Below are positions 25,862 to 56,018 of a DNA stretch of 64,000 bases, piece after piece. The notes beneath the pieces are model-generated. The model was given only the letters and a program-made list of their open reading frames with translations. It did not search any database and was not told the DNA's origin. Position 1 is the stretch's first letter, and every line of letters begins with the position of its first letter. A program made the translations under genes and the position numbers. Source of the stretch: Balanoglossus misakiensis (taxonomy: Eukaryota; Animalia; Hemichordata); NCBI GenBank assembly GCA_040954595.2, contig CM082584.2:3255344-3319343 (forward strand), read 5' to 3'.

Positions 25862-25996
25862 TATAATTCCCCCGTATTTCAAACGAGTGTGCCTGCATCG
25901 CGGACGATAGCGGCCGTATCCCCCGGGCCACAGGCTATACTGGGAATGTCGAGTTCGCGACGCAGGTACACGAGTGAGGAATACGGGGGAATTATA
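25862..25996. repeat. Imperfect palindrome with CGAG/CGAG mismatch
   Basis: tataattcccccgtatt...aatacgggggaattata, with CGAG at 25884 and 25971. Confidence 0.8.
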
Positions 25997-27255
25997 TGTT
26001 TAACACATACATAGACCAAGTGTCCATGAAATTGAGCTTCTTTGTGAATTTAAAACATTTCAGCGAAAAAATAGCACTGTTTTAAAAGGATCAACAGATC
26101 ATGTTATGCGGTCGGGGTGGCGGTCACAAACGGACATTAAACCACGATCAGCTGTTAGTAATAACGGGCCCCGAAGGTTGAGTTTATCGTGCTGTTTCTG
26201 AGTGAAATCAAACGAAATATGAGACACAAGATGTATCACTTCACCTGACGATATTTTTGGTAGGTAAATATGGATGAAAACACTGATAACGCGGCAAATT
26301 CAACTACGTGAACGTTACTTGGATTGACAGCGCGCGGCCCCATTGTTTACAACGCCGGACATTTTATAAGGGTTGAACAACATTGACTTTTCGAATGGAA
26401 ATTGCAAGCAGTATATGAATTTCAAAATTTTCAAACACTTTAGCAATAAATCATTGTTAAATATTTATATTGAAGACGTGTCAGTTTAAAATCTAAACGC
26501 AAACTTTTAATATCCACCACCTGAGACACCTCTCTCTCTGCGTTTTTGGCTTCGGAAACGGAACAAAAAATCTACTCGATGTTGGGTCAAGGTACCTTTC
26601 ATCCGATTTACACGTCCCCCAGGCGCATCTCTTCACTATTCTGGCCGATATTTTAAAACCATTAAGTTCCTAAAACTGAAAAAAACTTCCAGTCTGTCTA
26701 TCTCTAACTGAGCGTGTACTGTAGGCTGGGCCATGTTGTTGATTATATGTGGGACAAAATGGCGGTTGTGTGAACAGCATGACTTTTCTCGGCTCTGATT
26801 GGCTGAGGGTTCAGTGTGATTGACAGCTGTGGAACCATGAATTACTGATGCTATCCTGCGACCTGAGCTAAACCACTGATGAAATGAGCCAACATGATCG
26901 CCGAAACATGCGGATTTTTCAACATTCTGGCACGTTGTTTTATTATCCTTCCCAACTATCGTCAGAATAACGGAACATTTAGTTGTCAGTGTGTTTTGGA
27001 ACCTCGAAAATTACGAAAATCTCTCGCTTTCGCCAGTGTTTCAAAATTTATCGCTGCGATCTCACGACCTCAGGTAACCCACTGATGGAATGACCCCACA
27101 TGACCCTTCTTTGCATAACAAAGGTTGCGTCATTTTGGCCAATGAGCGGCCTTCTCTGGGTTGCATAGCCTTTGGCGCATCACTGTAATGAAAATCAATA
27201 CGCCACGATCGAAACTTTGATTTTCGTCAAATCTGGGGAAACATATGCAATAATA

Positions 27256-27440
27256 ACAGAACTTCATGACCACTGCGCGCGATCTGTGCAATATGGATGT
27301 TATTTTCACTCGTGAGAAGGTGTATTCTTCTGCATTTTTACTCGCTTCGCTCGTAAAAATACTCGGAAGAATACACCTTCTCACTCACGAAAATAACTTC
27401 CATATTGCACAGATCGCGCGCAGAGGTCATGAAGTTCTGT
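27256..27440. repeat. 185-bp palindrome with a GCGAAGC loop on the minus strand
   Basis: acagaacttcatgacc...ggtcatgaagttctgt, with centre ttttactcgcttcgctcgtaaaa. Confidence 0.9.
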
Positions 27441-28499
27441 CATAGCATGAACTATTGTTGTGTTTATCAACATGTATTCAAGTTTGGAAAGATTTTGACA
27501 TAAAAATTCACCAGGAACAGACAGGTGCTACAATAAACGCAGGTGTGGGATATACAATGTCAATAATTCAATAACCATAAAATAACTGTAGACACTAAAT
27601 TATTTTTCAGTCAATCTTGAAAAAAAAATCGCACGCTGCGACTTGGAGGACACCGGCAGCGATTCCTGAAGAACCAAAGGTAAATGAAAACCTGTGCTGC
27701 ATGTATTTTCAACTCTGACAAAATATTTGAGGACCACACAGGAACACATTATACACATCTTTTTTATTGTGAAGAAATTATTCTGATTTATATGCCGCAC
27801 AAAGACAACAACAATGCACAGATAGTTATGTGTGTATGTGTGATACATGTACATATCTGATTAAAATGGTAGTCAGGCCAGTATTTCATTTTGATGCAAG
27901 TCATGTTTATTCTTATTGTGTGTTTTTTTTGCCTATTAATTTACTTGATTCATCATCAAAACACACAAAGCAAGCGACTATGAAAAAAAAGACAAACCAT
28001 AAGCATTAATTGTATTGTATTGTATTTTTATTTGTATTTACAGTCATGTTTAGCCACGGAGGCCGCTGGGTCATGCCAGCCTCATATAATGGAGGTGAAC
28101 TGTTACGTAAGTTTCTTGCGTATTGTAAACCCTTGAAATTTTGGTTAGCTTGCAATAGCCAAATTGAAGTAGATTTTTTTTAATTGTTCTACTGGTCTTA
28201 CTTACATGAGTGAATAATAATTTAATGTTTTAAAACTTGCATTTATTTCAGGAGTGTGAACATGAACAAAATCAAAAGAAGACTGGCGAAGAGAAAGACA
28301 GAAGCAAGGTAATTGAAATGGTCTACAATCAATGCAAAGAAAATGCTGTCAGTTTGGGCCTTGAAATGATTAAAATGGTATTTCTGAATAAAATGTGTAT
28401 TTTATTTTATTTTATTTTCAGGACAAAGAGAAAATAAAACAACTCGAATGAGAAATTGAGAGACCGAAAAGGGAAATCGGGGGGAGGTTAATACAAGGG

Positions 28500-30774
28500 A
28501 AAAGAGGGTGGAAGCTATAAGGGAAATTGGTAAATTAGAAAATTTAAAAATTTACAGGCATGCAGATCTCCTCTGCCAAAACCAAGACAGGTATTCCGTT
28601 CAAAATTTATCAGACATAGATTTACCTAATCTATTGTCAGAATGGAATCCTGTCTTGGTTTCCTTTCTTGAGGAGATCTGTATGCCAAATACTGGAATCC
28701 AAAGTAACACTCAATATCTTGCCCATGCCGTTGAACTTGTTTATACTACCAGGAATCCTAAGTTTGTGAGTAGTTTTATTTCTGCAATAATATTCAAGTT
28801 ATTTTATTTAGTTTGACCAGAAGTCGCCTGGCAGTTGATCTCATGGGCCACGTAACAGCAGGCCCATGTTATGATGTCATTAACAATATTCTTTTTAAAG
28901 GTAATTTTGATTTTCCAGATGCACCTGAGGGGTGAGTTGAATTTTCTTTTGATAATGAACAACATCTTTCTAAAAATTACATTAACAGAAATGGTAATTC
29001 AGTTACTTTGGATATTTTTACTAACATTATTGCTTCTCAGCTGGACCCAGAATCATCACTGCAATATGATTCTGGGTTGAAGCCAAGTCAGTGGCAGAAG
29101 GTTTCAGAGACAGATGTTTCCAATACAGAGGACAGCAAGTATGATGAGTTTGATTCAGTTGTCAAAGAGTCCATTGCTTCTTATGTTGATAATTTAATTT
29201 TATCTTCTGTAGCCACTATCAATGTAGATAATACACCACAGACTGACTATATTGACACATACTTACAACAAAAACAACATACTGACAGCATCGAGATTTG
29301 CCCTAAGTGTGGTTTCACCCACACAAAGGGCAAATCGAGAATTGCTAAGTGTCGAGGTTGTGGCATTTGGATGGGTAAGTATAGGAAGGAGATGAAAAGA
29401 GAGAAGACATCAACCTTTATTTCACCAGGCAGAAGACCAATTAAAAAGAAGAAGAGGGGAACCATCTTGCATGAGTATGTTGGTGAAGAAAAGGTTGATC
29501 ACATGGGTAAGCAAACTACCAGAATTGTTAAAAAAAAAAAAGCAAATAAAGCAAATATTTCTGTTATGTCCCCTATTTTTGTAAATCCTAATTGTGTCGA
29601 ATCAGTGAAATAAATTCTTAATCACATTGGTAAGCTTGCAAAAATCAAACAATATTTTAATCATGGTGAGGGCAATGGAGATTATTGTACATGTAGGGAA
29701 TGGGTTATAATCAGGTGTGATGGCTTGCCATATGTAATTATCCGGAAAATTTTATCAGAAGATCATGAGGGAATATTTTCATGGGTTGTTTTAAGGACGG
29801 GTCTTTTACATGAAGAAATCAATGCAGTCAAATCATTTGTTTCTATGTATTGGGATGTAATTTACAGGGACTTTGCTCTATCTCAGGGATTCTCCTCAGG
29901 CAGATCTCTAGAATTTGTGAAAAAGTGTTCTGATCATCACATTTCATTTGACCTTCTTTGCAAATTCAGAGATTGTCTGTGGAGCGAATTGCTACATGAA
30001 TTTCATGTGAGTAATCCCACTGCTGATGCATCCACCAGTTTGTTTCTTGGCTGGTTGAATGCAGCAGCAGTGACAGACTCTCACATGAATTTCCTTTACA
30101 ATATTCTTCTACAACATTTACATGGAATTTTCCTCTTTCGACAGGGCACGCGCTTCAATTCACCCACTTACCTACGGGCTGGATGGCGTCTCCTTTGCAC
30201 CTTGTGGCACGGTCGGAATCACTCCACTTACCAACTGATTGACGTCTATGACGACACCGACCGTGCCCGGTATCCACCAATACTTCTCCAAACTCTGGAG
30301 AAGTACGAGGCCATTTCACGATCTGGCAGGCCTGATGCCCATCAACGTGCGGACGCCGTCCTGGAGGAGTACAACAAAAGCATCAAGGCCTGGGCTCCTC
30401 CAGTGCCCGATTCAGGTAAGTGGGTTGTCATCTGTAGCAGGCATGATGCCCTGGCCAGTCTGAGAAAGACAGTCTTCTCAGTCGTTAGCCTTGTAAATCC
30501 CGAGTCGTTGGAACGTAGCCGCCCAGGCTATTCTAACGACTTGACGGGTTTCAGGGGACGACTGAGACAGACATCTTATGTCAAGTATCAGGCTGGTCGG
30601 TCTCCTATTACCATCTCAGGAGATGCTATGGATAGACACATTGGCAATCATAACATCAATGCCGAAGAAAGAAGACGTGCCCTGGTAAGTATCATCTCCC
30701 AAGGTAAGTATCCAGGCACTGGCAAAAAAATACTATTTGTAACAGAAAATGAAAGAGCTGAAAGTGAAAGATAA
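28500..30774 (+). pseudogene. Large DDE-type transposase pseudogene, Academ-like (family tentative)
   Basis: Motifs FDNEQ, CPKC...CRGC, REWVIIRCDGLPY, GLLHEEIN and DAVLEEYNK. ORFs 29008-29613 and 29725-30774 share a frame and are separated by one TAA. There is a frameshift near 28790 and a TGA near 28933. Confidence 0.6.
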
Positions 30775-32977: not shown

Positions 32978-34535
32978 TCAGGCAATCACCGTCACATTTA
33001 ATCCCTTGCTCTCCACGAACGCCTTCACTCTTTGTAGGTCGCCTTCTTTCAGGTGAAATCCAACATTACACACCTGAACGACGCCGCATCGTCGAGAATG
33101 AAAAAAGGGACTTTCTTTTGGTTTGAGGAAATATACGGAATTTGGAGATAGAGCCGCATCGATCAATCTTGCGAGCACTCGAGCGACATCTCTCTTCAAA
33201 TGTCCGTATATTTCGCGGGCGCCTTCTTCATTGTCGACGATTGCGACGGCGTTCTGATCGTATGGGTTGGATTTCTCCCGCAGAAGGCGATACCCAGCAC
33301 CGACAGTAAGTGCACCTTTAGGAACCGTTCAGTTTTTACGGCAGGGGGGGGGGGCGGCAAGTTTGTGTCATCGGTTCTCAAAATCAGGCCGACCCCCCCT
33401 TCACCCAGGACCAAACAATGATGACCCCCCCCTTTGACAGACCCAAAAATATGATGACCCCCCCCCTCCCCACGCCCAAAAGATTCGCCGTCCTGACCCT
33501 ATGTACACTGTATGCAATAAAGGGCTCCTCACACCTCAATTCTATATTTCTTAAAGTATTATTGAAGTACATTGTATATAATAGTATATCGTTGCAATAA
33601 AGAAATCTATGAACAAATTAAAATGACAAGTCAATACAATAGTTGCTAGAATCGGTAAAACAAGAAAAGTGGCGGGGGTGGGCGTGGGAGGGGGTGTCCC
33701 CCTCCCACATAAGAAAATTTTGTAAAATACGGTGGTGATCAAAGTTGCAATTTAATGAACTCAAAAGCAAATTAATTCAATGTTAGGGAGGAAAAATGTT
33801 AATTTTGCCACTCCACTCAAAGTAAGCATCGGGGTGGGGTGGCAAGAAGTCTTCCCTGGTACACTAGACAAACCAGTGAATAAATGCAATGTGGCGAAGA
33901 ATGGAGGGGGTGGGTGTGGGAGGGGGTGTCCCCGTCCCACATAAGAAAATTTTGTAAAATATGTAGCGCAAAGTTGCATTTTAAATAACTCAAAAGCAAA
34001 TTATCTCAATGTTTGGGAGGACAAATTTTACTTTTTGCCACTCCACTCAAACTTAGAAGATTTGGCGTCATCTTGTCATGACATCATTTATAAAACTTCT
34101 AGTATACAGAAGATGCAGCCCGAAATCAGTTATGCAAAATGGTTTAAACAATTATCCTCCTTTATGTATTCACTTTGCTAAATATTATCATATGTGGGGT
34201 TGGGGTGGCAAGCACTCTGCCCTGGTACACTTGACAAACCAGCAAAAAATGAAATGTGGCGGAGAATGAAATTAGAAAATTAGAAAATTTTGTAAAATAA
34301 AGGGTGCGAAACTGCAATTTTGTGGACTCAAAACCAAAGGTTCGGTGGCAAAAGTATGTGACCCCCCCCCCTAAACGTTTAGTGGACTTCAAAATTTGTG
34401 GACTTCAAAATTTAAGTGAACCCCCCCCCCCCCCTTGGATTTTGCTGTCCCCCCCCCCCGGCCGTAAAAACTGAACGGTCCCTTATAGTGGTGCATCCCC
34501 ACTGCCAGTACTTGGTGTACGATGAGTGAAGGCAT
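32978..34535 (-). pseudogene. Stand-alone HIRAN-domain protein (130 aa) split by a MITE
   Basis: Joining 34535-34483 to 33317-32978 gives an uninterrupted ORF: MPSLIVHQVLAVGMHHYKGALTVGAGYRLLREKSNPYDQNAVAIVDNEEGAREIYGHLKRDVARVLARLID...NVTVIA*. Confidence 0.8.
33321..34482. mobile_element. Harbinger MITE (same family as 42239-42973)
   Basis: TIR GG(G/A)ACCGTTCAGTTTTTACGGC.(G)n with TSD TTA (33318-33320, 34483-34485); internal duplicated ~215-bp unit. Confidence 0.92.
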
Positions 34536-35663: not shown

Positions 35664-36551
35664 GTAGGCCCAACTAAAGGCCGCCGCACACGAGAGAAAT
35701 CAGCTGAGCAAAAAGTCATTCGAGGAATTTTGCTCAGCAATTTTCCTTCCGTGTGCGGGCGATTTTTCCTGATCTTTTTACTTTGCGCCGCGGATCACGA
35801 TATTCAACATGTTTGATATTTTTTTCCTCGCGAGGAAAATTCATCACCGTGTGCGCAGAACAAAGTAATTTTACTCACGTATCTAGCCTTATTGCGCATG
35901 CGCCGGCATCACTTGACGATGATACAAGACGGCCGCCTCCACTGAAAGCGAGCATTGATGACAGCACTTGTTGTGGTAAGTAATATATGCATAGTACAAT
36001 GCGCTTTCTTCACGGACGACTACTTTTTTTTTCTAATGAAAAAATTTCCATGTCTCGATATTTCCTATCGTCCGACGCCCGTGGCAAGTATAATTTTTCG
36101 TCTGGGCAAGTGAAAAATAACAATAATCTGCCTGACTGACCACGTACGAGTCGAGCGACCGTGAACTGCAAACGAGTTTGTAATCTACACTAGGACCTCC
36201 CATGTCGTGGCGTGTGTTGCATTGCCTGTACTCTCCTGCATAGTACAATGGATGGCCCTTTTGACCTTTTATCTACACCAAAAGCAAAATAGCAAAGTTT
36301 ATTGGTTTACAAAATCGTTACACTTTCGCTACAGTTTACCTATATTTACAAGTCGACTGTGGGCTGTTTACATGATCAGCTGATGATTTGTTGTGAACGC
36401 TGCGTTCAAGCTCGCTGACGTCATTTCACGCACCAATATGGTAAACAGAGTGTTAATATCGATACGGCTATACTGAGGTATATGTAAGCAGAGAATCAAA
36501 ATTGGGTGTTAAAATAAAACCTTTAATGCACTTTCCCTTTTCAGTTCAGTA

Positions 36552-39215: not shown

Positions 39216-39750
39216 AATTTTCACTGCCAAATGAAACAACTTATACTAGTTGAGATTGGTGCAATACTGGTGCAATGTTATGACCTTTTTCTTATGCACT
39301 ATTTGGAATTGGGGAAGGTGATGTTTTTATACATGGCTAATTTAAAATGTATTTTATTGGTATTATAGGAACAGATTGTTAAATGTTTATATATTGGTAA
39401 TTTGGAATGTCTGTTTAAACTAAATATTTATCTTTCTGCTTTTGCTTGTATATTTATTGATTTTAACTTATGTAAAATGCATTGAGTTATGTATAGTGCA
39501 TTATAAAAAATAACCAATAAGAAGAAAAAGTTCTGCAGTTGTTTAATTTGTTTTGTGTATGTGCTATTTTAATTGAATAAAATACTTACTGTATCCAAAT
39601 TTGAAATTGATGGCCTGGACGCAATAAATGGGTCCAGGAACTGGAGCTTGTCCAGCAGCCAGCTCCTTCTCTTCGTGGTGTTCCGGGCGCTCCCACTACT
39701 CGGGGGTTTCTTAGCCTTTACATAATTGTTTCTGAGATACCGCAATTTTA
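37856..39750 (-). pseudogene. Harbinger MADF/Myb-SANT + BESS-like accessory gene, 5'-truncated (exons ~39750-39590 and 38352-37856)
   Basis: LRYLRNNYVKAKKPPSSGSA...WLLDKLQFLDPF, GTAAGT donor, TTTCAG acceptor, an acidic linker, then FGTYVSQALKDLEPRVRHLAQHRINNILFEA after a frameshift near 38140. Confidence 0.75.
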
Positions 39751-40133
39751 TTTTAACCAATTCTAGTGCAGGAGCTAAACCCCAAATTTTGGCATAATTG
39801 TGCACTTTGGGTTAAAAGCATGAAACTTGGTACACTTATGCATTGACCCATGGCGGCCATTTTCTGATATTGATCCAAAACGACAGCGCCCTCTAGCGGC
39901 CAGAAACAGACATATATACTTTAAAATTGTGCACTTCGGGTTAAAAGCATGAAATTTGGTACAATTATTCATTGACCCATGGCGGAAATTTTCCAATATG
40001 GATCCAGGACGAGCACGGAATGAACATTTATCATAATGATTGTGGAACCAATGTTTGCATAAAGGTATCTGTGAATTTTGGCTAGTTTTTCAAACTTTTC
40101 ATTGGGTCTATCAAGCTTAGCTTGTCCGTCATT

Positions 40134-40242
40134 CACAGAAGCCAGTTGCTCACAGAAGCCAGTTGCTCACAGAAGTCAGTTGCTCACACAAAGTCCGTTG
40201 CTCACACAAAATCCGTTGCTCATGAAGTCGGTTGCTCACAGA
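40134..40242. repeat. 17-19 bp tandem repeat (about 6 copies)
   Basis: cacagaagccagttgct and variants. Confidence 0.8.
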
Positions 40243-41413
40243 GTCCAGCCCAGCTTGGTACATTCCTAATTCCCAAGGCGATGTGGAGCTGGAGCTACGT
40301 GCTCCTCCGAGTCAGTGTTGAGAAGTGTGCGCCGTGGTTTTTGTGAGAAGGCCTTTTATATGGGTGACCATCTGGTTATTACTAATATTTAAATGAACTA
40401 GTTGAAAAGGCAGGGCCCTTTGTTATGCAAAGAAAAGCTACCCCTCTCTCGACCAAGCAACTAAGCAGGGTGTGTCGTAACAGTACTTAAACCATGGAGC
40501 TACCACAGCTTAGACGACAATGAACTGTCTGTTTCCTCAACCTTGAAAATCACTGTGACGCCACCGCACCAATACGCGATGTATCCTACAACTTAATTGG
40601 TCGTTCGAAACTTAGACCTCTAATTGAAAATGTAGAAAAAGATGTTCACGCCATTCAAAGATTCATTTACTCGCAGTATACCATTTTTTACACTATCTTC
40701 ATTGTATATACTTGAAATTTAAAGCCATTTTAAATGTCAAGTGCGTACATCACTTTAATGGTCTCCACAACATCTCTTTCAACAAAAGTTACATTACCTG
40801 GTTTTTCTGAATTAACTTTTGCAGATAACCTTCGTGTGTCCATGACACAGTTTCCGCTCTACCTATTTGTGTACGTGGTTTATCTACAGGAATACCATGG
40901 TAATACACCACAGTTACAATTGACCAGGACGAACACGGACTGGACATTGATCTAAATGATTGTGGAGCCAGTGATTTCAGGAAAGTCATGATTCTGAATA
41001 TGCTGGCTAGATTGTGCATAGAACTCGAAGCCGACGGGAAAAAATAACTGAAAAATTTCTACCATTATGAGGTTAACGAACCCAGATACGGTAAGAACTC
41101 CCGCCATGTGATATATGGCCTCTTCTGCAAACATGGGCGAATCGCTACATGCAATGAAATAGCCGGATGTTCCCACTGATTTGCTACGCGCCTCAAAAAC
41201 TCTGATATTGGCACATTTTTACGCGCTAGCGACAACCAATTGTAAGAGAGATAGATAAATCGATGTCGATATGATAGCCTGTTTGTCGATGTTTAGGAAT
41301 GGGGTAGAAATTCTAAAGATGGCAGACATGTAGAGGCCAAAAAAAACGGCGAATATTCAAGAGTGTCGAGAAGTTTTCAAGTTGGAGTTTGACACCTTCC
41401 CGCTATATTTAAA

Positions 41414-41594
41414 TAATAACACATGTTAGCGAGGGCATTATCATGATCTTTGGCCTGCTCGAGGGATGGTGATCTCTGACCATAAAATTGATGATGCCCT
41501 GCGGCTCGGGCATCATCAATATTATTGTCAGAGATCACCATCCCGAGGGCAGGCCAAAGATCACGATATTGTCCGAGCATGACATGTATTATTA
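41414..41594. repeat. 181-bp palindrome with two CGAG/CGAG mismatches
   Basis: CGAG at 41430/41574 and 41460/41544, exactly symmetric about the axis. Confidence 0.9.
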
Positions 41595-41959
41595 TATCGA
41601 ACAAACTGCATGTATACATGATTGACAACACAGGACACACGCAACTTTTAACACTATTTCATCTTTAATTTGCAAGATAACGTTAACTTTTAACAACATT
41701 TTTTTTTAATTTTGCCAATACACCGGTACATTTCTTCACTTCTTCTGCCCCAAGAAAATGTTAAAATCCCCCCCCCCCCCCCCTGTTATCGTTGCTTTGG
41801 AAGCTGCTGATCTTGGCATGTCAATATGTACACGCGGAGACAGTGGATATTGTTTCTCTGTGGAGTGAGCCTGAAAAATCACAGAGGACAGTGGTACACG
41901 GCTGGTGGTGGTGAGCTGGCTGGATGCACCACAGCTTTGGCCTGCAGAAATTGCTGTTG

Positions 41960-43440
41960 CCATCGTAGCATTCGCTCAGGAGAGTTATCGATGTTGCTCT
42001 TATGCTGTGGTTCATATAGCGTTGACTCAGATCCGGGGCTGTAGAAATGACTGACATTAGTCGTGGACAGGCTGTTCTTTCCGATCGGTTTGTTTTTCAT
42101 ACCAAACGCTATCACTGACATGATACTTATCGCGTGGACGATGAAATAGAGCATCACATACCGGGTTCATCTTGCAAACGTAAAGTTCAAATGCACTGAC
42201 AGGACACTCGAGTGGGTTTGATGAATTGACGTACATAAGGGACCGTTCAGTTTTTACGGCCGGGGGGGGGGGGGGGGTCGGCAAGTTTGTGTCACCGGTT
42301 TTCAAAATCAGGCCGACCCCCCTTCACCCAGGAGCAAAAAAATGATGACCCCCCCTTTTGACAGACCCCAAAATATGATAGAATTGGTAAAACAAGAAAA
42401 GTGGCAGGGGTGGGCGTGGGAGGGTGTGTCCCCTTCCCACATAAGAAAATTTTGTGAAATATGTAGCGCAAAGTTGCATTTTAATGAACTCAAAAGCAAA
42501 TTATCTCAATGTTTGGGAGGACCAATTTTACCTTTGCCACTCCACTCAAAGTTAGAAGATTTGGCGTCATCTTCGTCATGACATCATTTATAAAACTTCT
42601 AGTTTATAGAAGATGCAGCGCAAAACTATCAGTTATGCGAAATGGTTTAAACGATTCTTCTTCTTTATGTATTGACTTTGTTAGGCACTCTGCCCTGGTA
42701 CACTAGACAAACCAGCAAAAAATGAAATGTGGCGGAGAATGAATGGGGTGGGAGGGGGTGTCCCCATCCCACATTAGAAAATTTTGTAAAATAAAGGGCG
42801 CGAAACTGCAATTTTGTGGACTCAAAAGCAAGAGTTCAGTGGCAAAAGTATGTGACCCCCCCCCCCTTAACGTTTAAAAAAACCAGATGACCCCCCCTTT
42901 TGGACATCAAAATTTAAGTGACCCCCCTGGATTTTGCCGCCCCCCCCCCCGGCCGTAAAAACTGAACGGTCCCTAATACCACCCGACACCCAGTCGTCGT
43001 CGACCTGATGGTTCTTCGTTACTTCACTACCGACCTGAATAACAAACTTGTTATCGCTATCGTCCGCCTTTATTTCAAAATGTACTATGTGGAGATCCCA
43101 TTGACTTTCTCTACCACGTCGGCAAAAAAAGCATGATGTTAAACCACACTTTATGAATTAGGTCGCATCAACATCGGAGCGAGAAAATAGCTCGCGAGTT
43201 TCTTGAAGTCGCCCGGAAGTATTGCTGGCTTGTGAACGACGTTTCCCTTTCTTGGCTCTTCAGCTGCTTACATACGGCCGTGAACATCTTGCGGCTTTCA
43301 GAAAACTCTTCGCCATTTACAATGTCAAAGTTACGGCGCAGTGGTGGTCGACTGTAGTAACGCTGGATGCCATAGCGAAGTGACTGCAGCGATTTCTTGG
43401 AGCATTTTTCTCCTTTCTGTGTACGTTCCTCTGGGTAGTG
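41960..43440 (-). pseudogene. Crypton-type tyrosine recombinase (DUF3504; ZMYM/KCTD1/QRICH1-related), degraded and MITE-split
   Basis: SKKSLQSLRYGIQRY...FDIVNGEEFSESRKMF, CPVSAFELYVCKMNPVCDALFHRP...WYEKQ, PIGKNSLS and YMNHSIRATSITLL (HxxR); several frameshifts. Confidence 0.85.
42239..42973. mobile_element. Harbinger MITE inserted in the Crypton recombinase
   Basis: TIR GGGACCGTTCAGTTTTTACGGCCGG with TSD TAA (42236-42238, 42974-42976). Confidence 0.92.
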
Positions 43441-44679
43441 TTGTGTTTGCATCAACATGAGATAAATGATGCGATCATTTAGGTAAAACAAACAACCTAT
43501 TTATTGAACGACAGAAATACTCAACAATGTGCTTCGCCTACTTGGGCGGAAGTGACGTCATACAGCAACTCGAAAACAAGTGGAACACCAATAATACAAC
43601 TATAGAGGGCGTAGCTATCAGAATACTACAGGTAGAATAAGGTGATGAGTGTCACGACGTCACTTCCGGTTTAACCTGCTCTTAGTCAGCAAAACATGGT
43701 CGACCCAGCAGTGTCACGCGTGTAGCTTTCTGTTCGCAATCGACTTATGTTCTCGTAGGTTATGTAAAGGAAACTCCGTTCGAACGAAAAACCAATCCAA
43801 TTTATATAAGTTTATGTATGTTAGCATCGTTCTGTGAGGAAAGTACTATCGATTTTGTTCCGAGTCGCGATTTTTTGGTGTTTTTTCACTCCGTATGTCA
43901 GCTGGCATCATGGCATACTGTTGCCAACGATCGTACTCGGACGACGTAGTTTGAAGTTGGCAGGCAGACTAAACAGCGAGCGCACAGCTTTATTATGTGT
44001 ATATTTTGAAAGACTAATATGTAATGTGTCTGAAATTGCATGGGAGTCCCAAAGCGCCCCTTTTATTTTATCGATTTCACCGTATTTAGAAACTGTACTA
44101 TCTCATAGGCGCCTAACACATTTCCTCTCCGTATGTGAAGGCCGTGGTGATCGCAACTTACTGTAATACTAAATTTTAGAATAACCCTATTACAGTCAAC
44201 ACGTTCCTGAAAAAGACCAATTCGATACCATTCCAGCGGCAGTAAAATTTTCTTTCAAGCACTTATAATATATACGATTTTTTATGTGGTAGTTAAGGAC
44301 GCGCGCCGTTTGACTTGCGTAACTAACCACATATTTACAAACATGCATGTAGGTTTCTTGTACCCATTGTGCGTAAAATAAAAAAAGTCTTCTGGTTTTC
44401 GTTTATTTGCGGTTTGGAGTGGGGTTTAAAAAAATACTGTACACATTTGAGAAGAAAACTGAGTTGTAATAGAACGAATAGAAAAGCTGCAACGGTATGT
44501 TGGCCTACGGTAAAGCTTTTCACGCTCGGCGGCCATCATGCAGCTACGCCCCGTCGACGTATGCGCATAGCCCCGCGGCCAGTACATCGATCCGAATAGA
44601 CGGTCCGAATCTTCCATTCAGTCCAAGTGCCCAAACTGCCTGCAGGGTTAAGCGTATAAAGTGTTATTACACCTCACTC

Positions 44680-45260
44680 TGTATTCTGTACTCTTGATTG
44701 GCTGAAACCGTACCACGTGACATAGAAAAAAACGTGATATTACATGGTTGACAAAGTCTATGGCCCGTAGGTAGGGGCTACGGGCCGGGGATACGCGCGA
44801 ATATATTGCCGGCTGAGAACAGGTTTTAGGTTCTGCGCATCTTTTCTGCGCATAACAAACTGTCGTTCAATGACTTCCTTCACGATCGGTCAACACCCGC
44901 ATTTATGGCTTCAAAGCGACACACAGGATTAACACCTGTTCAACTGGACGATATGTTACCGCAAACGGACAATAAATACACCAAAGTCGCAACCAACATC
45001 GCGGTTTATCTGAGTTCGAAGTAGGTACACTGTACAGCGAGATATTTTAGTTCACTGCAACCTGCATCGTACGAAATGGACGCAACCCTCTATGCTGTGT
45101 ATGGTCAAATGTTCGGTATAATAAAATTAATAACACATGTCATGCTCCTGCAATATCATGATCTTCGGCCTGCCCTCGGGCTGGTGGTCTCTGACCAAAA
45201 TCGCCGTACGACCGAGGGCCGCAAAACCCGTATCAGGGCCGTAAAGGTTTTATCATATGC
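44680..45260 (+). mobile_element. Probable non-autonomous Crypton derivative
   Basis: MASKRHTGLTPVQLDDMLPQTDNKYTKVATNIAV from about 44905 resembles Crypton recombinase N-termini. 45130-45197 matches an arm of the 41414 palindrome. Confidence 0.5.
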
Positions 45261-45921
45261 CTTATTGAACGATAATCTACAAGAAACTAATAAAATACAC
45301 ATTCTGTAATATTTTGGAATGTAAATATTACGTGTTTATCTATCGTTTTGAAATGATCTATCCCGTAGCATAGAGGCGCATTCCTCCAGTTCTTGCGGAT
45401 TGATATGCACGATGTCATTTGTTTACATTCTATTGCACGTGAGATATAGACGCGCTCGAACTCACACAGCCGAGCGCGAGCATAACATTATTTTTTCTTC
45501 GCGACGATCGACGCCGACAGTCACACATTAATCTACAACATGCAGCGATTATGGAAGAGGATGTGATTCGGTAGCGGCATAGGACATACACACACTGCAA
45601 GTGCACTAGTCACTGACAACGCACCAGAAAAATTTAAATCAGAACGTAGCAACGACAACTTTCGAATCTCGCGCAATAAACACAAAACTAGATCCGGATA
45701 TTGAACGCGTCTTCCAAATATGGTCACCGGGCCGGGGCGTGATAAGCAAAAAAACTGCACGGATGTGAGGGCGCTTTTCCCCATAGACTTTACATGGGCA
45801 CGTGAATATAGGCATATGATAATGGTACATTGCATCCGTGCAAAAACTTAAATACGACAGTGTGTGTCGCGAAGACGAGGAGATATATGCAGTAGACAGT
45901 AACGAAACCTGTTATATGCCA

Positions 45922-46103
45922 GAACTCCATGACCTCTGCACTCCAGCAATGCTGTACGGAATTTGTTTTCATAAGTGATGCAGTGTGTATTCTGTCGCAG
46001 TACTCTCACTAGCTATGCTCCTGAAAGTACGGCAGAACACCCTGCAACACATGTGAAAACAACTTCCGTACAGCACAGATTGCACGCAGAGGTCACAGAG
46101 TTC
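45922..46103. repeat. Degenerate palindrome related to 27256-27440
   Basis: gaactccatgacctctgc...gcagaggtcacagagttc and gctgtacggaa.ttgttttca / tgaaaacaacttccgtacagc. Confidence 0.7.
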
Positions 46104-46195
46104 AGTTATTGCTGCATATATTTCCTCGGTTTGATGAAAATTTAAGTTTCAATCGTTCCATTGGGCATAGTTATACAGTTTAATGTTCATTATTT

Positions 46196-46339
46196 AGGGG
46201 TTATTACACTAATTTTGGTCGATAACGCGTCGTATTCGAGTGTGTCCGTATTTTGACGAGTTGCGCTTCGCAACGAGTCAAAATACTGACATCACGAGAA
46301 TGCGTCGCGTTATCGACCAAAATTAGTGTAATAACCCCT
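46196..46339. repeat. 144-bp palindrome with two CGAG/CGAG mismatches
   Basis: Perfect 34-bp outer arms; CGAG at 46237/46295 and 46257/46274. Confidence 0.9.
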
Positions 46340-47103
46340 TTATCATACATGCCTACCTATAAAACAGTACGATTTGCGAAAATGCGCCGAGAAAAACAAT
46401 TTCAAATTTGAACAGGGCGCTGGGATCACGGCAGTAGCCATGTTGTGACGTATGACGTGTGGGCCGTAGTATCATTTTAAGGGGGTTGGCAGCTTTCATT
46501 ACGATGGGCACATCCGCATTCTAAATAAAATTGTCTACGTTCTCTTTCAAAATATCATGTTAACAATTATGTTGCATTGATAATTTCGAAGAACTAAAAA
46601 TGATGCATTCAACATGACAAAACCGCCAGCTTTGAAAACTTTATTACAGCTTCTAATAACCGAATTTTACAACACCCCTCTCCACTAGAGTCCTATGCCC
46701 CGTGTGTCGCTCGCGCGCGCAGCGAACAATCTCGCCGAGACGCGGACGCGATATTTTCACATTGTGAAATACCGTAAAATATCTTCGGGGCGAGAACAAT
46801 AGAAAGTGTTAAATACAGGCGTTGCATGTATGATAATGTAATTTACAGTGCACCGATTGAAAACATTGATGATTTCTAAATACCGATTAACGTACGTGAA
46901 AGCAATTTTGATAAGTTTTATTACATTCAGTACAGTAGTGATGCAAAAATTCATTGAATATAGTAATTAGCTCTTAAAAGGAAACTACTGAACGTCACAA
47001 TATACAGACAGATCGAGCAAGTTACAATAAATTGAAAATACAGAAAAATCAAAATGTATCATTGATAGGAAAACATCAGTCAGCATAAAGATTATCTATT
47101 TAA

Positions 47104-47339
47104 AGGGAAAGGGGTCGTCGCGCCGCGTTGGTGCCCCCTTTGTAGAAAATATGTCCTCTCATACCAGCGCAAACCCCACTGCAGTCGCCACGACCTACTA
47201 AGGTCGTCAGTTGCCGTGATGCCCAGTCTATGCTACAGTTCGCTGCTTCGTTCATTTTAAGAATTATCTAATTTCAGGGATTTGTGAATGGATGGTGATG
47301 TTTATAAATACACAAACGCGGCGCGTAGACCCCCTCACT
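47104..47339. mobile_element. TTAA-flanked MITE (Kolobok-like); second copy at about 51257-51488
   Basis: TTAA-AGGGAAAGGGGTCGTCGCGCCGCG...CGCGGCGCGTAGACCCCCTCACT-TTAA. Confidence 0.7.
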
Positions 47340-48337
47340 TTAATGATTACTTCTCAATCCACACCTACATTGGCCTTGTAATAAGATCTCCGAGTGTGAA
47401 TTCACTTCATATTGATAGGATGTACACTGCCGTACATATTGATTTGTCAAAGGAAACTGAGTTTATTACAAGTAGTTCAGTTCATCTAGATATTAAATAC
47501 AAAAACACCACTTTTCATAAAGCAAAGGGGTTCATTTATTACTCATTTTACGTTATGCAATGACATAATGCACAGTGAGTGACTTTCTGCAAGCATTCCC
47601 TGTATTCTTGATATCACAAAACAGGTCAAAACAGAGATTTTGTCCCATTAATGGCATCTGATTGAAAAATATTGGGTAAAAAGCCTTTGATCACAAGATA
47701 TTAATATCGAATCGACATTTGGCTTAGACGTTTTCAAGTAAACAGTATACATTGTGTGTAATATATATATGAGAATACTAAATTTAAGAAAAACATCCAA
47801 AATGACACGTAATGATTCAAAGCCCATAATGAAAATACAGTTAGAGATATTTGTCCAAGTTATCTTCCTGCCAAATTTCCGAAATGGGAATAATTATGCA
47901 AATAACTCATAATTATGCAAGCCACGCCCACTATTATCTTATCACATATGTTTCTTTACCTGGCGATGTGATATATCAAATATCATTACATTTGATTCAG
48001 TGGTTTTCATGTTACAGTGTACATTGCACTATGCACTATGCAAATGAGAATACATAATTTTAGTAAAACATCTTAAAATGACATTTGCAACGATTCAATT
48101 AAAAAATCCTAATAACATGCTGGAGATATTTGCAAGAGTCATCATTGGGGAAAAATCAGAAAAAGAGGTTTAACCGAAGCGTTTTCGAATAACTATTAAC
48201 TGGATGAACGAGGCTTTTAATTTTAATCGATGTTACTTCTTAAAGCTTTATCAAATGAATTAAATATTTAATTTAAAAACGACACAGCTTTTTATGTAGC
48301 TGTAGGCATGGAGAAACCACATTTTCCGATAACTATA

Positions 48338-49345
48338 TTACAGTACAGTCTCTGTAGAGGCGTGAAGTGGATTTGTTGAATGAACTACCCGTTGTGCTAC
48401 TGATATGGGCATAGTGTTAGTGGGTCCCTGTGAAACACCACATGTACAATAGCAACATACTTGCTTCACTGCCTTTCTGTACTGGGAACTGCTCACTGTG
48501 TATATGAATGGGTTTATGGAACAGTTCAGGGTGAACAATATTTTAGCCGTCCGAGAAAAGACAAACAATCCGTCCATCTGGGGAGATTCTGGCCTATAAA
48601 CGCCGTCTTCTTGTAAGCTTACAATGAAAAATAACACCACAGCGGGGATGACGCTGATGAATATAACGACGTTTGTTATAATGACGGTTCTGAGTACTTG
48701 GGTTAGTTCTCTGAAGGCGGGAAGTTTCCAACCTCGTTTCGAAGACTTACTTCGTCTGTGGATAGTTTTTACGATCAAGCTGTACAGTGTTGTTGTTTCA
48801 ACAACACAGACGAACAGGACAGCCATGATTAAATACAGACAGATTATCGCAAATCTGTTCTGCTCGCTGGGGTGGAGAAATTCTATACAAGTCCCGGCTT
48901 CAATAACTGCCAATGTGAGACTTAGCGTCCACGTTGCCATGACACCAATTGCCAGGTTTTTCGACCTTAGTAAGAAAGCTTTGAATGGATGGCAAATGGC
49001 TACGTATCGTTCGATGGATATTAAAGCGACTGTCAAACACGACTCGACAAGTGGTATAAACTGTGTCATCGCGTGCAAGGCACACGGGATAGTCATAAAC
49101 ATACTGACGAATACATTGAATAGCCATGTCAGATCCGATAGGGCTAAATTAACTAACAAAATGTTAGTTTTGGTTTGAATAGCTTTGGCTTTGCAAAAAA
49201 CGATAATGAATGAAAAGTTGTTCAAAATACCAACATTTGCTATGGCGAACTCAGTGTACTTTATGAGCCCGATCAGTGCATCGACGCTCGTAAGGCTGGT
49301 AGAATTATTTTCACCACAGATTGCTTCTTGCGTTGAATTATCCAT
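48338..49345 (-). CDS. Intronless rhodopsin-class (class A) GPCR, 335 aa, orphan
   Basis: Seven hydrophobic segments; GILNN (TM1), NLALSD (TM2), ERYVAICHP (TM3), TM4 Trp, NCSINPFIY (TM7); N-glycosylation sequons. The ATG at 49345 is preferred over the upstream TTG. Confidence 0.92.
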   Translation of the reverse strand: MDNSTQEAICGENNSTSLTSVDALIGLIKYTEFAIANVGILNNFSFIIVFCKAKAIQTKTNILLVNLALSDLTWLFNVFVSMFMTIPCALHAMTQFIPLVESCLTVALISIERYVAICHPFKAFLLRSKNLAIGVMATWTLSLTLAVIEAGTCIEFLHPSEQNRFAIICLYLIMAVLFVCVVETTTLYSLIVKTIHRRSKSSKRGWKLPAFRELTQVLRTVIITNVVIFISVIPAVVLFFIVSLQEDGVYRPESPQMDGLFVFSRTAKILFTLNCSINPFIYTVSSSQYRKAVKQVCCYCTCGVSQGPTNTMPISVAQRVVHSTNPLHASTETVL

Positions 49346-50715
49346 GGTGGTCAATTCCTCACGGCACAAATGAATGTCTTGATGGGTTGAATCTAAAACT
49401 GAAGGTGAAGGTATTGTTTCCTGCCTGGCGACCTCCGTTAAGTATTAAAACTGTTAATGAGCTTGGTTGGTTGGTATCTTAGGTAAATTGGTTACTGTCG
49501 AACGTTGTGGTTCCAATGACGTCACAGGATACCTTGGCAAAAATGTCACAGCCTGCTAGTTATTGGCCTGACGCAAGACCGGACCTGTAAATATTAATTG
49601 ACAATACGTGGGGCTAAATACCAAACATAATCGGTAACGAAAAGTCCTACATTTTTGCTAATACAAGACATATTTAAGTAATATGGTAGATTATGCATGT
49701 TTTGCACTTGTTTGGAGTTGAGTACTGTCGGTAGACTATTTTATACAATGATCATGTTACCCGCATAATTTTTGTCACACACTAATGAATATTAATGCCC
49801 TTCTATTTGTTCATGCTAACACTGAGTGAATCTCTAGTTTAAGATCACTAATGAAAATTCATTTGAAATCCACTGCGCCCTTTGTGGATTGAACATCTGT
49901 TACATAACTGCAACATTTAGGGACATTAACCTTGAACCGTGGGATGATTGTTCAATTTGAAATTCGCGCCTCCATTTCTCATGAATTAATAAAACAATGC
50001 TCAAATAAACGACTGATGAAGTCGTCCTTTCTTGGTTAGTTTGAAAAAAGGTCACTGTGTAGAAAATTTGGAGACACAAATAGGCAACTTTAGTCACTTT
50101 CAATATGATAGGACTATAACCCAGTATCAATTTTCAAAAAAAAAAAATCAAAAAACGTGTTTCAAAGATTGTAACGATTATATGAGTCACGATGTAATAT
50201 ACTTTATCCAGTCATTCCATTGGTAAAAGAGTTTTCATGAGAGTTGTTAGGTGGAGGCTTTTAAAAACCCCAGCCACACAACGAGAGGCAAGTCCTTCAC
50301 TGTCCTTTACTGTCACAACAGTGTAATAACGTGGAGGTGTAAATTCCATATGCGGGTATGTACTTATTGTTAGTTATGAATCGAAAAATTCGACGGGCCG
50401 TGGGCATAGAAAACAATATTCCCATTGTATAACCCTCAACCTACATAAATGTAAATATTCTGACTTATACTTATCGATCCACAAGAACCCTGGACAAGAC
50501 AAAACGTGAACATTATCACCACAGATTTTTTTACATCAAATGATCTTTACAACTTGAAGAGTGTTACTCAGTGTCCCTAAGTATAACAAGCTATATTCTC
50601 TGATTTGCATAGTGTGCTTACAATAATATTATTTCAACTTGAACTAGAGGATATACTATACTTATAGTGACATGTTGTCATGTTACATGTTTTAAAAAGA
50701 CTGTTGAGGTGTCGT

Positions 50716-51815: not shown

Positions 51816-54800
51816 AACAAATGTTTTTCCGTTTTTCTGGCTTGTGATGCAACTGTTTGTAAGCGACAATGCCTGCCAGAGCAGTAAGAAAGGGTTTAAT
51901 ATTTTAGGTCGAGGCAAATGTGAGGAGTAGCAACTCCTTTTCTTCCTTCGGTGGCATAACTTTAACTATATTGAAAGTTACATTATATGCGTAACTTGAT
52001 CCATTTTTTCAGTATTTGTTTCTTTGTATCCACCATGGTTGTCTTGGTCGTCTCCCTACAGCAGGATCACAGTGAAGGGGTCGTCGCGCCGCGCTTGATT
52101 GTTTATGTGCATTACCATTCATCAAGTTTATATCATCCAGCCATCTATTGCATACCCACTGCCGAACTGTACGTGACATTTTTTTAGTACTCAATTATTT
52201 TGAATAATTCCTTGACCACATAACATACGTGTTGTGCTATCTGCTTCTCGCTGATGTCTTTATTATACTTTCCGTTGAAACACGAAAATTATCTGTCCAG
52301 CTGTGTTTTATACAGCCAACTTTATGATTAATGCACGTTTTTTTTTAATTTGAAGGCTGTAGAAAAAGTAGAAATGCCAGATTTGTAATAAATATTTAAA
52401 CCCAGTGGATAATATTATTACTGTCGGAATTTTATTTAGATATGGTATTTTCCCTGTGTTTGATCCCGTCTCAACTTGTAATCGACAAATCCATTTTCAC
52501 TTTAATCTTATTAATTACCTTTGCACATTCCATTCTTTACATATTTTTGTGAATACAGTATAAATCTTACTTTGCCTCGTATATTATGTTCCGCGGTCAA
52601 AAACTAACGTGATGTAATAGACGAACATTTGTTTTATTGTCAAATTTACTGTCTATAATAAACTTAACATACTTAATATATTTAATTATTGCAAGATATT
52701 TTAATTACAGTTCAATGAATAACAGTTCATTTAGAAATGTTTTTTTTTCTTTCACCCTGGGAACAAATGTGTTCCTCTATATTTCTTTACCAACGGTGCA
52801 TTCTTGTCAATCTTATGTTCACATAGGATAATTCTTTCCCGGTTTCATGAGGTGTCTCGTGTTAATCTTTACATAATTTCAAGACACTGCCATGCTAGAC
52901 AAGGAACGTCTGCCGTAATTTTTGAATACACTGACACTATAACACTTAAACGACCTACAGTTTCGTATATATTTCACTTCTACTCATTAAAAGAAACGCT
53001 GTTTTCAAACTGTGTCGAAAAGGTTCGTTCCATTCAACTTTCTCTCAATTTCTGCCATATCCGGATGTATGTTTATGTTTAATATTCAATCAAAATGTCA
53101 GGTATCATCGTTCACCCAGTAATCGTAGTCCTGAAGGGTATCTGTAATTGGATGTGCCAGCTAATCACATTTGCATATGGCATAGTACAACCCACTGACA
53201 AGAAGATTTTGACGTCGCGTCGGACAGAACTACTTATACAGAACCTGTCGCTCGGGACATCATCTCGTCAGATTCACCCGAGGAGATAGCATCTGCAAGC
53301 AATTTGGCCCAAAAAGTCAAACGGAAGTGGTAAAGTCTGAGCATTGCCTTTCCAAACAGACAATTGCAACGTTTCTGATCAGTTTGTGAATAATGGCAAA
53401 GGTGAGTTTAGTTTAATTAATACTCATATTTTTTTCACTTTACTAATTGCTCACATTTTTTCGCGGTGGAGAATGCAACCTCGGACACAGCTTTTCTGTT
53501 CGTTTGTTTGTTTGTTTGTCTGTCTTTTTCTTTGTGTTTGTTATTTAAATTCATGTCTTTTGCAGAACTAGTTTTTGGCTATTCCATTGCAATCGATTAC
53601 TCGAATTGGAAAAAGCTTCTGGTGATGCGTATGCTTAATCTGGCTGTAACAAATTATGTGTAACTGACAGGCAATTAAAATTCCATATTAAAAACTGGCG
53701 AGATAATTGATATCGTAGTGACAATAATTATTGTTTTTCGAGCAAGCAGTGTAAGACACATTTTGACGCGAATAATTGAAATTTCGAGTAGCAAGTATGA
53801 AAAAAATTAGCAGACATAATTTTTACATTTTAGAACATTCTGACTAAAGTCTTGTCGGTGAAGCAGTCGGGAACCATTCATATTACTAAGTCAGGGATTT
53901 ATTGAACCCGAGTAATTATCCGGTTGAATTAATAAACGCAACTGCTTGTTTATTTTCAAAGTTGTCTCTTTAAAGTATATTATTTCAAATGTCCCGACCT
54001 GTGTACACTACAGACTGAATGTCCTGTTCTACCTGGCGCGCCTGCTCCTGAACGCAGCAAGCCAGGTGGCTCGCCTGGCTCGCCAGGCCCGATGAGCGTG
54101 TTTGTTGAGCGCGCCAGGCTTGAATCCTGAATATTCATGAGCTACCTGGCTTGCATGGCCAGCCGGGTCACAGGAAGCGCGCTTGTTTACCTGGCGCGCT
54201 AGGCTTGCTCCTTGTCTATGGGCTTCATTATGTGTTGGGAACGCGTAGACCCACGCTACCCAAAACCACAAGCTCAGTCCCAAATTCGAAACTCACCTCA
54301 CTACCAAAAACACGCTCAAGGCAAGCATGCACGCAAAAAGTATTGAAATTATTTATTAAGACAAAAAAAAACGTCGAAAACACCTTAACTATCGGTTGCT
54401 TACCAGCAAGGAAGCAGGTCGGTTTGAACCACAAACACGTTTGATTGATCCATAGGGTCTATGATATGATGGCATTTCTGGTTTTTCTAGTCTAGTTGCG
54501 CAACCTCCAATTCAGATAAAGAATGCTAGTGGTTCAAAACACTATGTACATGCAGTCATTTATGTTCATTTGTAACCTGTGTTTTATGTTACCACAGATG
54601 CATACATGTAAAGCATACACGTACAAACTACAGATCAATTGCAGCAACTTAAAAATGACGAATATCGTAGCACTTCCTGTTTCTTGCTAACAGGGGATTA
54701 GCCCTCAGAATCTGTGTGCGTCCACACACTAAACGGACATTGTTTTGAGATCAACGCCGTCTAATGGCAATGTTTAGGAACACGGCAACTAACAAAAATT

Positions 54801-55871
54801 GAGGACGTCGAGGACATGTAATTGCAACATATCTCAGTTTCTATACCTGGATATGCGTTCTAGACGACTTTGTCGTCTTCTTCATGACCGTTTTGATATC
54901 GTTTAGAAGTACTGGATGTTAATCCACAAATCGAAAACGCATCGTCTTTTCGGCGATCGAAAGAACCTAAAGTTGGTGGCAGACAGAAGTGTTGCAGACC
55001 CGGCTAACCGCGAGTGGCTAGAAAACCACTCGCGTCCAGTTAGATTGACTCAACAATGGAAACTGACCCAAGACAATAGGTTACCTAGATAAACACAATC
55101 AAATGTCACCAAAAGATTGTGCTTTGCGTTCTCACTGTATATTTGCTTCGGTCTGGATCTGAACCACCCGTCATCGCTGTCGAAAATTAACACCGGCGCA
55201 GCACACGCGAAAAGCATTCTCAAATATTTTTTCCCGTCGGAGTCGTATCTGGATCGTTGCTACACCGGTACTACACCGTTGAAAACGTTAATCAATGTAC
55301 AACTCTCCTTCTCAACATAAGTTTTATTTCAGACTAGGCATTTAGGGAGGGGCGTTCAATTCACTACGAACAAAATGTGTCCGTTGTTAGTGTTAGTTTT
55401 CTTTATGAAGCATTTAAAACACAATTACACTACATTAGTTGTACAAATGCAAGGGAACATTTCCTTTCTGAACGAGAGAATGACAATCCGACAAACATGC
55501 TGATAAAGCCCCCCCCCCAAACAAAAAACAAAAACAAAACAAAAAACATCAACGGCGGAGAGCTTTATCGATTGCCTTGATGCACTGTTTTGACCACACG
55601 TCGCGCTCGGCGGATCGCGGAAAATCTTGGGATTATATTACCATGGCGTGTGCGTCGCATTTTAATTGGTCGAGATGAACGACGTCACTGACCACAAATA
55701 CCCAGTAATGGTTTGTTTACATGCCCGTAAATCTGAATAGTAATATTAGCAAAGAGTTCAGTGAATACAACATTTTGCGTAACACAAGTTCCGGGGCCCC
55801 TAGTGGGACATTTTCGTAAATTTTGACGGTTTTCTTGATTTTGTTGGTAATATAGTGGAAATAACCGACTC

Positions 55872-56005
55872 CGCCCTGACCATAAACGTTTGTTTATGGG
55901 CGGGGGCTCGAGGAAAGCCAAAATTCATGGGCTCGGAAGCCTCGCCCATGAATTTTTGGCTTTCCCCTCGCCCTTGCCCATAAACAAACGTTAATGGTCA
56001 GGGCG
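55872..56005. repeat. 134-bp palindrome with two CTCG/CTCG (minus-strand CGAG) mismatches
   Basis: CTCG at 55907/55967 and 55932/55941. Confidence 0.9.
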
Positions 56006-56018
56006 TCGTCCATTATTT

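Follow-up and report, generated by a model that had tools for sequence, protein, structure and literature searches.

Terminal hairpins with GA/GA loops on one strand in CryptonA elements of an acorn worm, and a possible folded single-strand route of transposition

The CryptonA elements of animals are described as carrying a single DUF3504 gene and as having many non-autonomous derivatives, lacking terminal inverted repeats (TIRs) as well as a target duplication, and Kojima and Jurka (2011) found no terminal repeats in animal Cryptons (PMC3212892). The passages cited from a paper of 2026 give short direct repeats as the rule, with no repeats found in fungal CryptonA (PMC13465315), and the human repeats Eulor5 and Eulor6 were classed as Cryptons because their termini are like those of salmon non-autonomous Cryptons (Kojima 2018; PMC5753468). 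The transposition of Cryptons has been a model lacking tests since their discovery. The present report concerns elements that fit the description of CryptonA, and the hairpins at their 3' ends, in 64,000 nucleotides of repeat-rich DNA from the acorn worm Balanoglossus misakiensis (contig CM082584.2, forward strand, positions 3,255,344 to 3,319,343), referred to below as the window.

Two bacterial systems that use folded single-stranded DNA (ssDNA) are of interest for comparison. The attC site of integrons is described as a hairpin complete in itself, bearing R and L boxes together with an AAC triplet and extrahelical bases; its bottom strand is favoured by unpaired purine-rich features and by a GAA tip (PMC5027507). 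In the attP(+) of CTX and other elements exploiting Xer, as presented in the source cited, two inverted arms fold in ssDNA with unpaired overlap bases, one arm is split on insertion, and exchange of one strand is predicted (PMC3442271). An earlier note on the window had read five "unrelated" palindromes, starting at 25862, 27256, 41414, 46196 and 55872, as candidate strand-specific, attC-like sites, plausibly for the Crypton recombinase in the window. In our analysis the hairpins at 41414, 46196 and 55872 are shown to be the 3' ends of CryptonA elements, and those at 25862 and 27256 are likely to be so by their resemblance in architecture.

Hairpins with GA/GA loops and the Crypton gene

All 16 CGAG and CTCG tetramers that had been reported in the five palindromes are present at the quoted coordinates, and arm-against-arm alignments place them opposed at mirror positions; the minus-strand loop at 27344-27350 is indeed GCGAAGC. 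A hairpin finder applied to the whole window gave 13 hairpins with 25 two-by-two loops, eight of which were GA/GA (or its mirror TC/TC), compared with 1.3% expected from composition (binomial p 8e-10). These eight were found among the 13 two-by-two loops of the five palindromes, while the remaining eight hairpins had none in 12. As a control, eight ordinary inverted-repeat pairs of the window gave 0/2 GA/GA loops over 745 pairs. Decay of the five palindromes was also simulated 300 times at a tenfold CpG rate; the number of GA/GA loops averaged 0.003 and never exceeded one, compared with the eight seen. The GA/GA pattern in the window hairpins is real, although the five palindromes had been picked by the earlier note for this very feature. 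Two other palindromic structures, a nested inverted one around a GTA microsatellite (20249-20728) and a near-perfect palindrome with an ATTA-repeat centre (60048-60231), have no GA/GA loops.

The same type of hairpin was found behind Crypton genes elsewhere. A scan of metagenome contigs gave 363 stretches with a recombinase relative, and the best 80 of these, forming 47 clusters, were used. A hairpin lay within 1 kb downstream of the gene in 15 of the 24 clusters with at least 800 nt of downstream sequence, and upstream in 4 of the 29 with at least 800 nt on that side, which bears out the association with Crypton genes proposed earlier. Seventeen representative hairpins, two of them from clusters with less flank, were compared, and in 16 the hairpin follows the coding match by 190-570 nt. 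Their two-by-two loops were TC/TC on the coding strand, that is GA/GA on the non-coding strand, in 29 of 47 cases, and never GA/GA on the coding strand; other symmetric loops were TG/TG (2) and AA/AA (1). At least one TC/TC loop was present in 14 of the 17. The closing pairs of the 29 loops were C-G/G-C in 20 and altered yet paired in 9. The innermost loop lies 4-7 nt from the tip in 12 representatives, and in 7 a further 19-21 nt separate it from the next. Tips on the non-coding strand are GAA, GCA or GTA in 8/17 and GTTA in two, the other seven being different or not resolvable. The hairpin stems of the 80 loci are too divergent from those of the window to be aligned by BLAST. A TT/GC loop, which gives A.G plus A.C on the GA strand, was seen at the outer position in 6 of the 47 loops (L028, L044, L038, L041, L071 and L072). 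L041 has two hairpins in a row, and in L001 (3681-3866) the outer right arm perfectly complements the left arm, unlike in the sister copies L002-L004, through arm-to-arm conversion or an assembly slip.

The gene of the window belongs to a DUF3504-type tyrosine recombinase, which is the sole gene of such elements. Its closest named relative is the acorn-worm protein P0002 (75% over the query), which is matched by the window pieces and contains DUF3504 (E 2e-12) and phage integrase (E 1.5e-6) domains. The R, K, H-x-x-R, H and Y positions are conserved in at least 90% of 37 aligned relatives, out of 121 fetched, and the predicted structure of P0002 is Cre-like (pLDDT 81), with Cre as best match (TM about 0.69). 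The window copy is, as judged from its sequence, dead: residues 312-347 with the catalytic His and Tyr are unmatched, the frame is shifted, and a miniature inverted-repeat transposable element (MITE), which we take to be of Harbinger type from its GGG-starting TIRs and TAA duplication, has inserted at 42239. The palindrome at 41414 starts about 145 nt behind this gene and is the only one of the five that belongs to its family. The link to Crypton that the earlier note proposed is supported. For the elements of the other four hairpins no coding partner was found, and their membership was assigned by architecture; when 11 regions of the window were compared with the 80 loci by BLAST, two weak matches resulted, one of them among the nine Crypton-type regions. 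In a viral contig collection, 61 pattern matches included no recombinase relative. The segments 24089-24231 and 26894-27045 are 78% alike, and their minus strand resembles by eye a frameshifted Crypton N-terminus; tblastn with the 121 relatives did not detect them as such.

Element ends and target site

Young families, whose copies are >99% alike and have differing flanks, terminate at the outer base of the hairpin. The order is 5' arm, body, internal arm, hairpin and end, the first 10-24 bases of the element being reverse-complementary to the DNA that immediately precedes the left arm of the hairpin. The internal arm is thereby the complement of both element ends, 3' and 5', joined end to end. 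In the four families defined by their flanks this split arm pairs at 11/11, 11/11, 11/11 and 10/11 positions, and in each of them the best match among about 1,250 positions falls at the hairpin base. A blind scan of 37 clusters gave a split-arm pairing of 12-24 nt as the best inverted match in 7, with a TTAT- or ATAT-like start and an ATTGG-type box behind. The arms vary between families, and their pairing partners change accordingly. A two-base bulge marks the joint of the ends in six of eight aligned junctions. When two of the window elements were folded as circles, both ends came to lie side by side on the internal arm. In such a fold the junction would form two arms around a spacer of 5 nt against 7 nt, mostly with ATAA and TTAT at its inner edges, a motif familiar from Xer sites. 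About 65 nt inside the 5' end of L042 there is a 25-nt stretch like the right hairpin arm, in the promoter region, which could be a second binding site.

The preferred target can be written W^WTA, with the left W in 20/22 and, among 14 distinct right flanks, W in 14/14, T in 12/14 and A in 12/14. In a nested insertion among the loci the host element is restored without duplication. Cryptons inserted in or beside other Cryptons were seen in L040, L041, L042 and L038, including at the 3' end of another.

Two complete elements in the window have the same anatomy. In the one with the hairpin at 46196, the 5' arm (46824-46836) is complementary to the internal arm (46340-46352) at 13/13 positions. 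In the one with the hairpin at 55872, whose 5' end at 55632 was predicted from the split-arm rule ahead of the data from contigs of sequencing runs (run contigs), the 5' arm starts at 55633 and the internal arm occupies 55845-55855, with 10/10 pairing of 55634-55643. The run contigs, which come from three runs of one sample that is possibly the source of the window itself, diverge exactly at 55632 (loose ends in 23, 17 and 3 contigs) and at 56021 (23, 18 and 1). This element interrupts an open reading frame (ORF) with a BEN domain for which neither Pfam nor a word-indexed search gave a match, and a full HMMER search found 20 relatives. After excision of the element in silico the BEN frame continues, with a linker of 13 residues; among 13 relatives this linker has 10 residues in 12 and 11 in the remaining one. 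The flanks contain a 9-of-12 near repeat offset by three bases. Run contigs also contain repeats of the surrounding BEN gene (55380-56420), and one contig extends across the hairpin end into part of BEN, so the insertion may predate the spread of a larger BEN-bearing element.

The 41414 family also includes a deleted copy at 44662-45201, which shares its ends. It retains recombinase codons 1-44 (44905-45021, plus strand) and the internal and left hairpin arms (45128-45201), and its right hairpin arm is missing. We rejected an interpretation of 44905-45021 as the inverted start of the broken gene because this copy has its own 5' arm and hairpin arm. In view of the recurrence of the 41414 arm in this copy, a 74% homologue of 27253-27443 at 45922-46103 and the shared architecture, the palindromes, which differ in sequence, are not unrelated in origin. 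Only one stretch of the window (23739) matches as a 5' arm for the 27256 hairpin; it is an unproven candidate with no ATTGG box behind it, inside a small palindrome of its own. For the 25862 hairpin no 5' arm was found within 6 kb.

These ends bear on whether the hairpins are no more than palindromic MITEs of the usual DDE kind, in which decay through mutation or through micro-inversions of two bases left a chance excess of GA. The window is full of DDE elements, and GA and TC are reverse complements of each other, as a micro-inversion would give. A DDE origin would, however, call for a TIR at both ends and a duplication of 2-9 bp, as seen in the control MITEs at 42239 and 24460, and the flanks of 46194-46836 and 55632-56021 have no DDE-type TIR pair and no target duplication, with at most one shared A, although the pairing of flanks in short-read contigs may be chimeric. 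Neither the true TIR pairs of the window nor the simulated decay reproduces the GA/GA loops, and the symmetric loops behind Crypton genes run to one side only. DDE MITE identity is ruled out for 41414, 46196 and 55872, and as a general explanation of the pattern it is very improbable. Lack of enrichment, ordinary DDE ends and lack of association with Crypton genes would each have spoken against the proposal of the earlier note, and none of them was found.

If the hairpin acted in RNA, either as an untranslated 3' structure of the recombinase transcript or as an antisense one, its position shortly behind the coding match in nearly all representatives would fit, and tandem G.A pairs form in RNA as well. 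Such an action is hardly likely, since the GA strand is the non-coding strand, the hairpin stops exactly at the element boundary, copies lacking the gene retain it, and mini-hairpins of this kind are described as far less stable as RNA (PMC13037366).

Probable movement as a folded single strand

The anatomy of the ends, and its analogy with the bacterial systems, suggest that CryptonA probably moves as a folded single-stranded DNA circle, which would be inserted by its tyrosine recombinase through exchange of one strand. In such a circle a single long stem would arise by folding of the non-coding strand, the joined ends pairing along the internal arm, and this stem would present a two-armed recombinase site with the 5-nt against 7-nt spacer. 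Cleavage of the non-coding strand by the recombinase would fall at the 5' arm's edge, the cut strand would be swapped with one target strand, and replication would complete the insertion in the manner of CTX. An internal arm copying both joined ends would be useful only if one strand folds on itself with the ends together, and one-strand exchange followed by replication would produce no duplication and require little likeness to the target, in agreement with the insertions observed. As to the release of the single strand, we can only guess that both ends fold onto the internal arm during replication and that one-strand excision follows.

CGAG facing CGAG in DNA is described as forming sheared G.A pairs (PMC10085684), and GNA mini-hairpins as having very high stability in DNA and a lower one in RNA, and as marking the origins of ssDNA phages (PMC13037366); they are also described in Streptomyces telomere overhangs (PMC5449611). 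In a Crypton, sheared G.A pairs and GNA tips may keep the GA strand folded while the mirror TC/TC loops would weaken the other strand, which could set strand choice and orientation. A distance of 40-90 nt separates the GA loops from the junction, and the likely recombination site is the hairpin base where both ends meet, not the GA mismatches; by analogy, the latter would set strand choice rather than mark the crossover. The element boundary coincides with the spacer edge next to the 5' arm, and the GA/GA loops and GNA tips are on the non-coding strand. By the geometry of tyrosine recombinases this spacer edge would be cut on the non-coding strand. From the marks and the position of the cut we infer that the non-coding strand is the one recombined. 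For the strand-specific sites proposed earlier, the enrichment of GA/GA on one strand is supported; they are the 3' termini of elements and not free-standing sites. That CryptonA represents a eukaryotic single-strand integrating element, in which a Cre-like recombinase reads a folded circle locked by G.A pairs and GNA tips and inserts it without a scar at a four-base target, has in our estimation slightly better than an even chance.

The established alternative is the Goodwin-type duplex route, in which the element is excised as a duplex circle, the palindrome serves as a series of binding sites in duplex DNA, and the mismatches just make a long palindrome less hazardous to the chromosome. This is the published Crypton model in the sources cited (PMC3212892, PMC13465315), and it is in line with the Cre-like predicted fold and with three window hairpins that lack a GNA tip on the GA strand. 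We nevertheless consider it unlikely, as it leaves unexplained both the one-strand GA/GA loops at mirror positions (29 against 0) and the internal arm copying both joined ends, and the listed flanks have no direct repeats of 4-6 bp at the termini as in the fungal Crypton model.

A further possibility is that the fold serves replication, by priming or protection, with the internal arm as template or splint joining the ends before a duplex circle is recombined. The GA loops are too far from the junction for a crossover site, which agrees with such a role, as do the described use of GNA mini-hairpins at priming sites of ssDNA phages and in the Streptomyces overhangs (PMC13037366, PMC5449611) and an internal region of DIRS-1 that is complementary to both ends and proposed as circle template (PMC5633606). 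On the other hand, Cryptons encode neither polymerase nor reverse transcriptase, a two-base junction bulge is not expected from a copying template, and a target match of about four bases would fit one-strand exchange better than two-strand exchange. We regard a role confined to replication as rather improbable.

Several observations weigh against the folded single-strand route. A GCGAAGC or other GNA tip is found on the GA strand of just one of the five window hairpins (27256); the tip on this strand is CTT in 46196 and 55872, the run contigs of the 55872 family have the same CTT, and the apex motif of 41414 points to the other strand. Nine of the 24 clusters with sufficient downstream sequence lack the hairpin, the single mismatches on the GA strand lean weakly to G.T (21 against 13), and the counts across families show conservation and not independent origins because the families share descent. 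ViennaRNA DNA energies show no preference between the strands, a model that may undervalue sheared pairs. VchIntIA, an integron integrase, ranks only 29th against the P0002 model (TM 0.49), which is nearer to Cre. The automatic end finder anchored wrongly in four of eight families because of substitutions near the element end; three of these (F3, F7 and F8) show the arm by eye and F9 does not. No clear split arm was found in 30 of the 37 clusters scanned blindly, partly because contigs are short or copies old. The junction of the 55632 element has no two-base bulge, and the internal arm of L005 has three extra bases. On the coding strand the matching WTA falls 3' of the cut, a position that could also point to exchange of this strand. 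A search of run contigs for empty sites and circles, as proposed in the earlier note, succeeded for the 42239 MITE, which was seen in empty form in two runs (skip of 738, 3 shared letters). For hairpin elements it gave no empty site or circle joint in 39500-47500 among 15 of 118 joints listed, and for the 55632 element the four joints listed are all internal deletions, with no end-to-start joint.

Further features and comparison with known systems

Table 1. Positions of CryptonA-type and associated features in the window
Feature	Position	Strand	Details
Broken CryptonA tyrosine recombinase gene (DUF3504)	41739..43446	-	Residues 65-436 of P0001/P0002 matched in pieces (P0002 residues 68-436 at 43437-41739)
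MITE inside recombinase gene, presumably Harbinger-type	42239..42973 (735 nt)		TAA duplication; DDE insertion control
3' terminal hairpin of the broken CryptonA	41413..41595	-	Two CGAG/CGAG loops on non-coding (+) strand
Short internally deleted copy, 41414 family	44662..45201	+	5' arm, ATTGG box, internal arm, left hairpin arm
Complete non-autonomous element	46194..46836	-	Hairpin 46196-46339, two CGAG/CGAG loops, no target duplication
Complete non-autonomous element	55632..56021	+	Hairpin 55858-56019, two CTCG/CTCG loops
Hairpin (likely CryptonA 3' end)	27253..27443	+	CTCG/CTCG beside GAA tip on GA strand; ATA after inferred end
Candidate 5' arm of 27256 element	23739..23752	+	14/14 complementary to bases before hairpin
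Older hairpin (likely CryptonA 3' end)	25862..25996	-	One CGAG/CGAG loop, branched 47-nt tip
Decayed 74% homologue of 27256 hairpin	45922..46103	-	No GA/GA loop left; absent from the earlier note
Harbinger-type MITE, TTA on both sides	24460..25856		Inserted at end of 25862 hairpin; control
BEN-domain ORF, N-terminal part	56022..56618	-	Cut by 55632 element
Remainder of BEN domain	55549..55632	-	Far side of 55632 element

Elsewhere in the window, DDE_Tnp_4 transposase genes lie at 36513-39215 (plus strand) and 3227-4312 (minus strand), the second with a THAP domain, and a fragment with an integrase zinc-binding domain at 5035-6273. A large inverted repeat of about 4.6 kb (18342-23461), with arms of 260 nt at 98% and blocks of hexamer-type microsatellite, looks like a foldback element. 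A long ORF at 28460-30774 (plus strand; weak Pfam match to DUF6589, E 0.015) and a HIRAN-domain ORF at 32978-33328 (minus strand; E 2e-10) are possibly parts of one large element. Two intronless ORFs (48338-49444, minus strand; 61065-62021, plus strand) resemble rhodopsin-type receptors by eye. Diverged direct repeats of 200-1000 nt are clustered in 1-15200, together with small palindromes of GGGCCC type.

For elements reported without terminal repeats, the anatomy described here gives the precise ends, a rule for the target, and a substrate that can be defined as about 40 bp of junction plus the hairpin. If the folded single-strand route is true, recombination of a type known from bacteria runs in animal genomes, many unclassified palindromic repeats of marine invertebrates could be classified by structure, and a compact recombinase capable of scarless ssDNA insertion would make an interesting tool. 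It is tempting to see in the folded element an animal counterpart of CTX-phage and integron chemistry, and in its movement the ancestral activity of the domesticated DUF3504 proteins, a view towards which we incline only slightly.

Beyond what is described for CryptonA, the elements here show GA/GA loops on one strand of a 3' hairpin, pairing of the 5' arm with an internal arm, and W^WTA as the target. Literature searches on Cryptons, at the level of the listings and of the papers cited here, showed no description of such a hairpin, of its GA/GA loops or of a split arm, and the end structure is apparently undescribed for CryptonA.

The integron attC site resembles the Crypton end as a hairpin behind a gene, with a favoured bottom strand, purine-rich unpaired features, a GAA tip and a very short target match (PMC5027507). 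The Crypton site differs in needing the far 5' end, in its symmetric GA/GA marks and in an enzyme whose model is nearer to Cre than to IntI, and no attC-type AAC box was found at the Crypton ends. DIRS-1 is likewise an element with a tyrosine recombinase, and an internal stretch of it is complementary to its 5' and 3' ends; it differs in being a retrotransposon that has reverse transcriptase as well as long inverted repeats, and in the account cited its internal complementary region is regarded as a template for cDNA synthesis (PMC5633606). The folded Crypton end, taken as an analogy, appears closer to CTX attP(+) or to this DIRS region than to attC, the model of the earlier note.

With CTX the Crypton end has in common the two inverted arms that would fold into one site and of which one is split on insertion. 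CTX employs the host XerCD, a dif target and single strands from rolling-circle replication, whereas Cryptons have their own recombinase and many AT-rich sites and no known replication protein, and no replication gene was found in elements of 1.8-2.3 kb; the mechanism of CTX is demonstrated, that of Crypton inferred. The CryptonA end may work like the folded attP of CTX while not being a member of that class.

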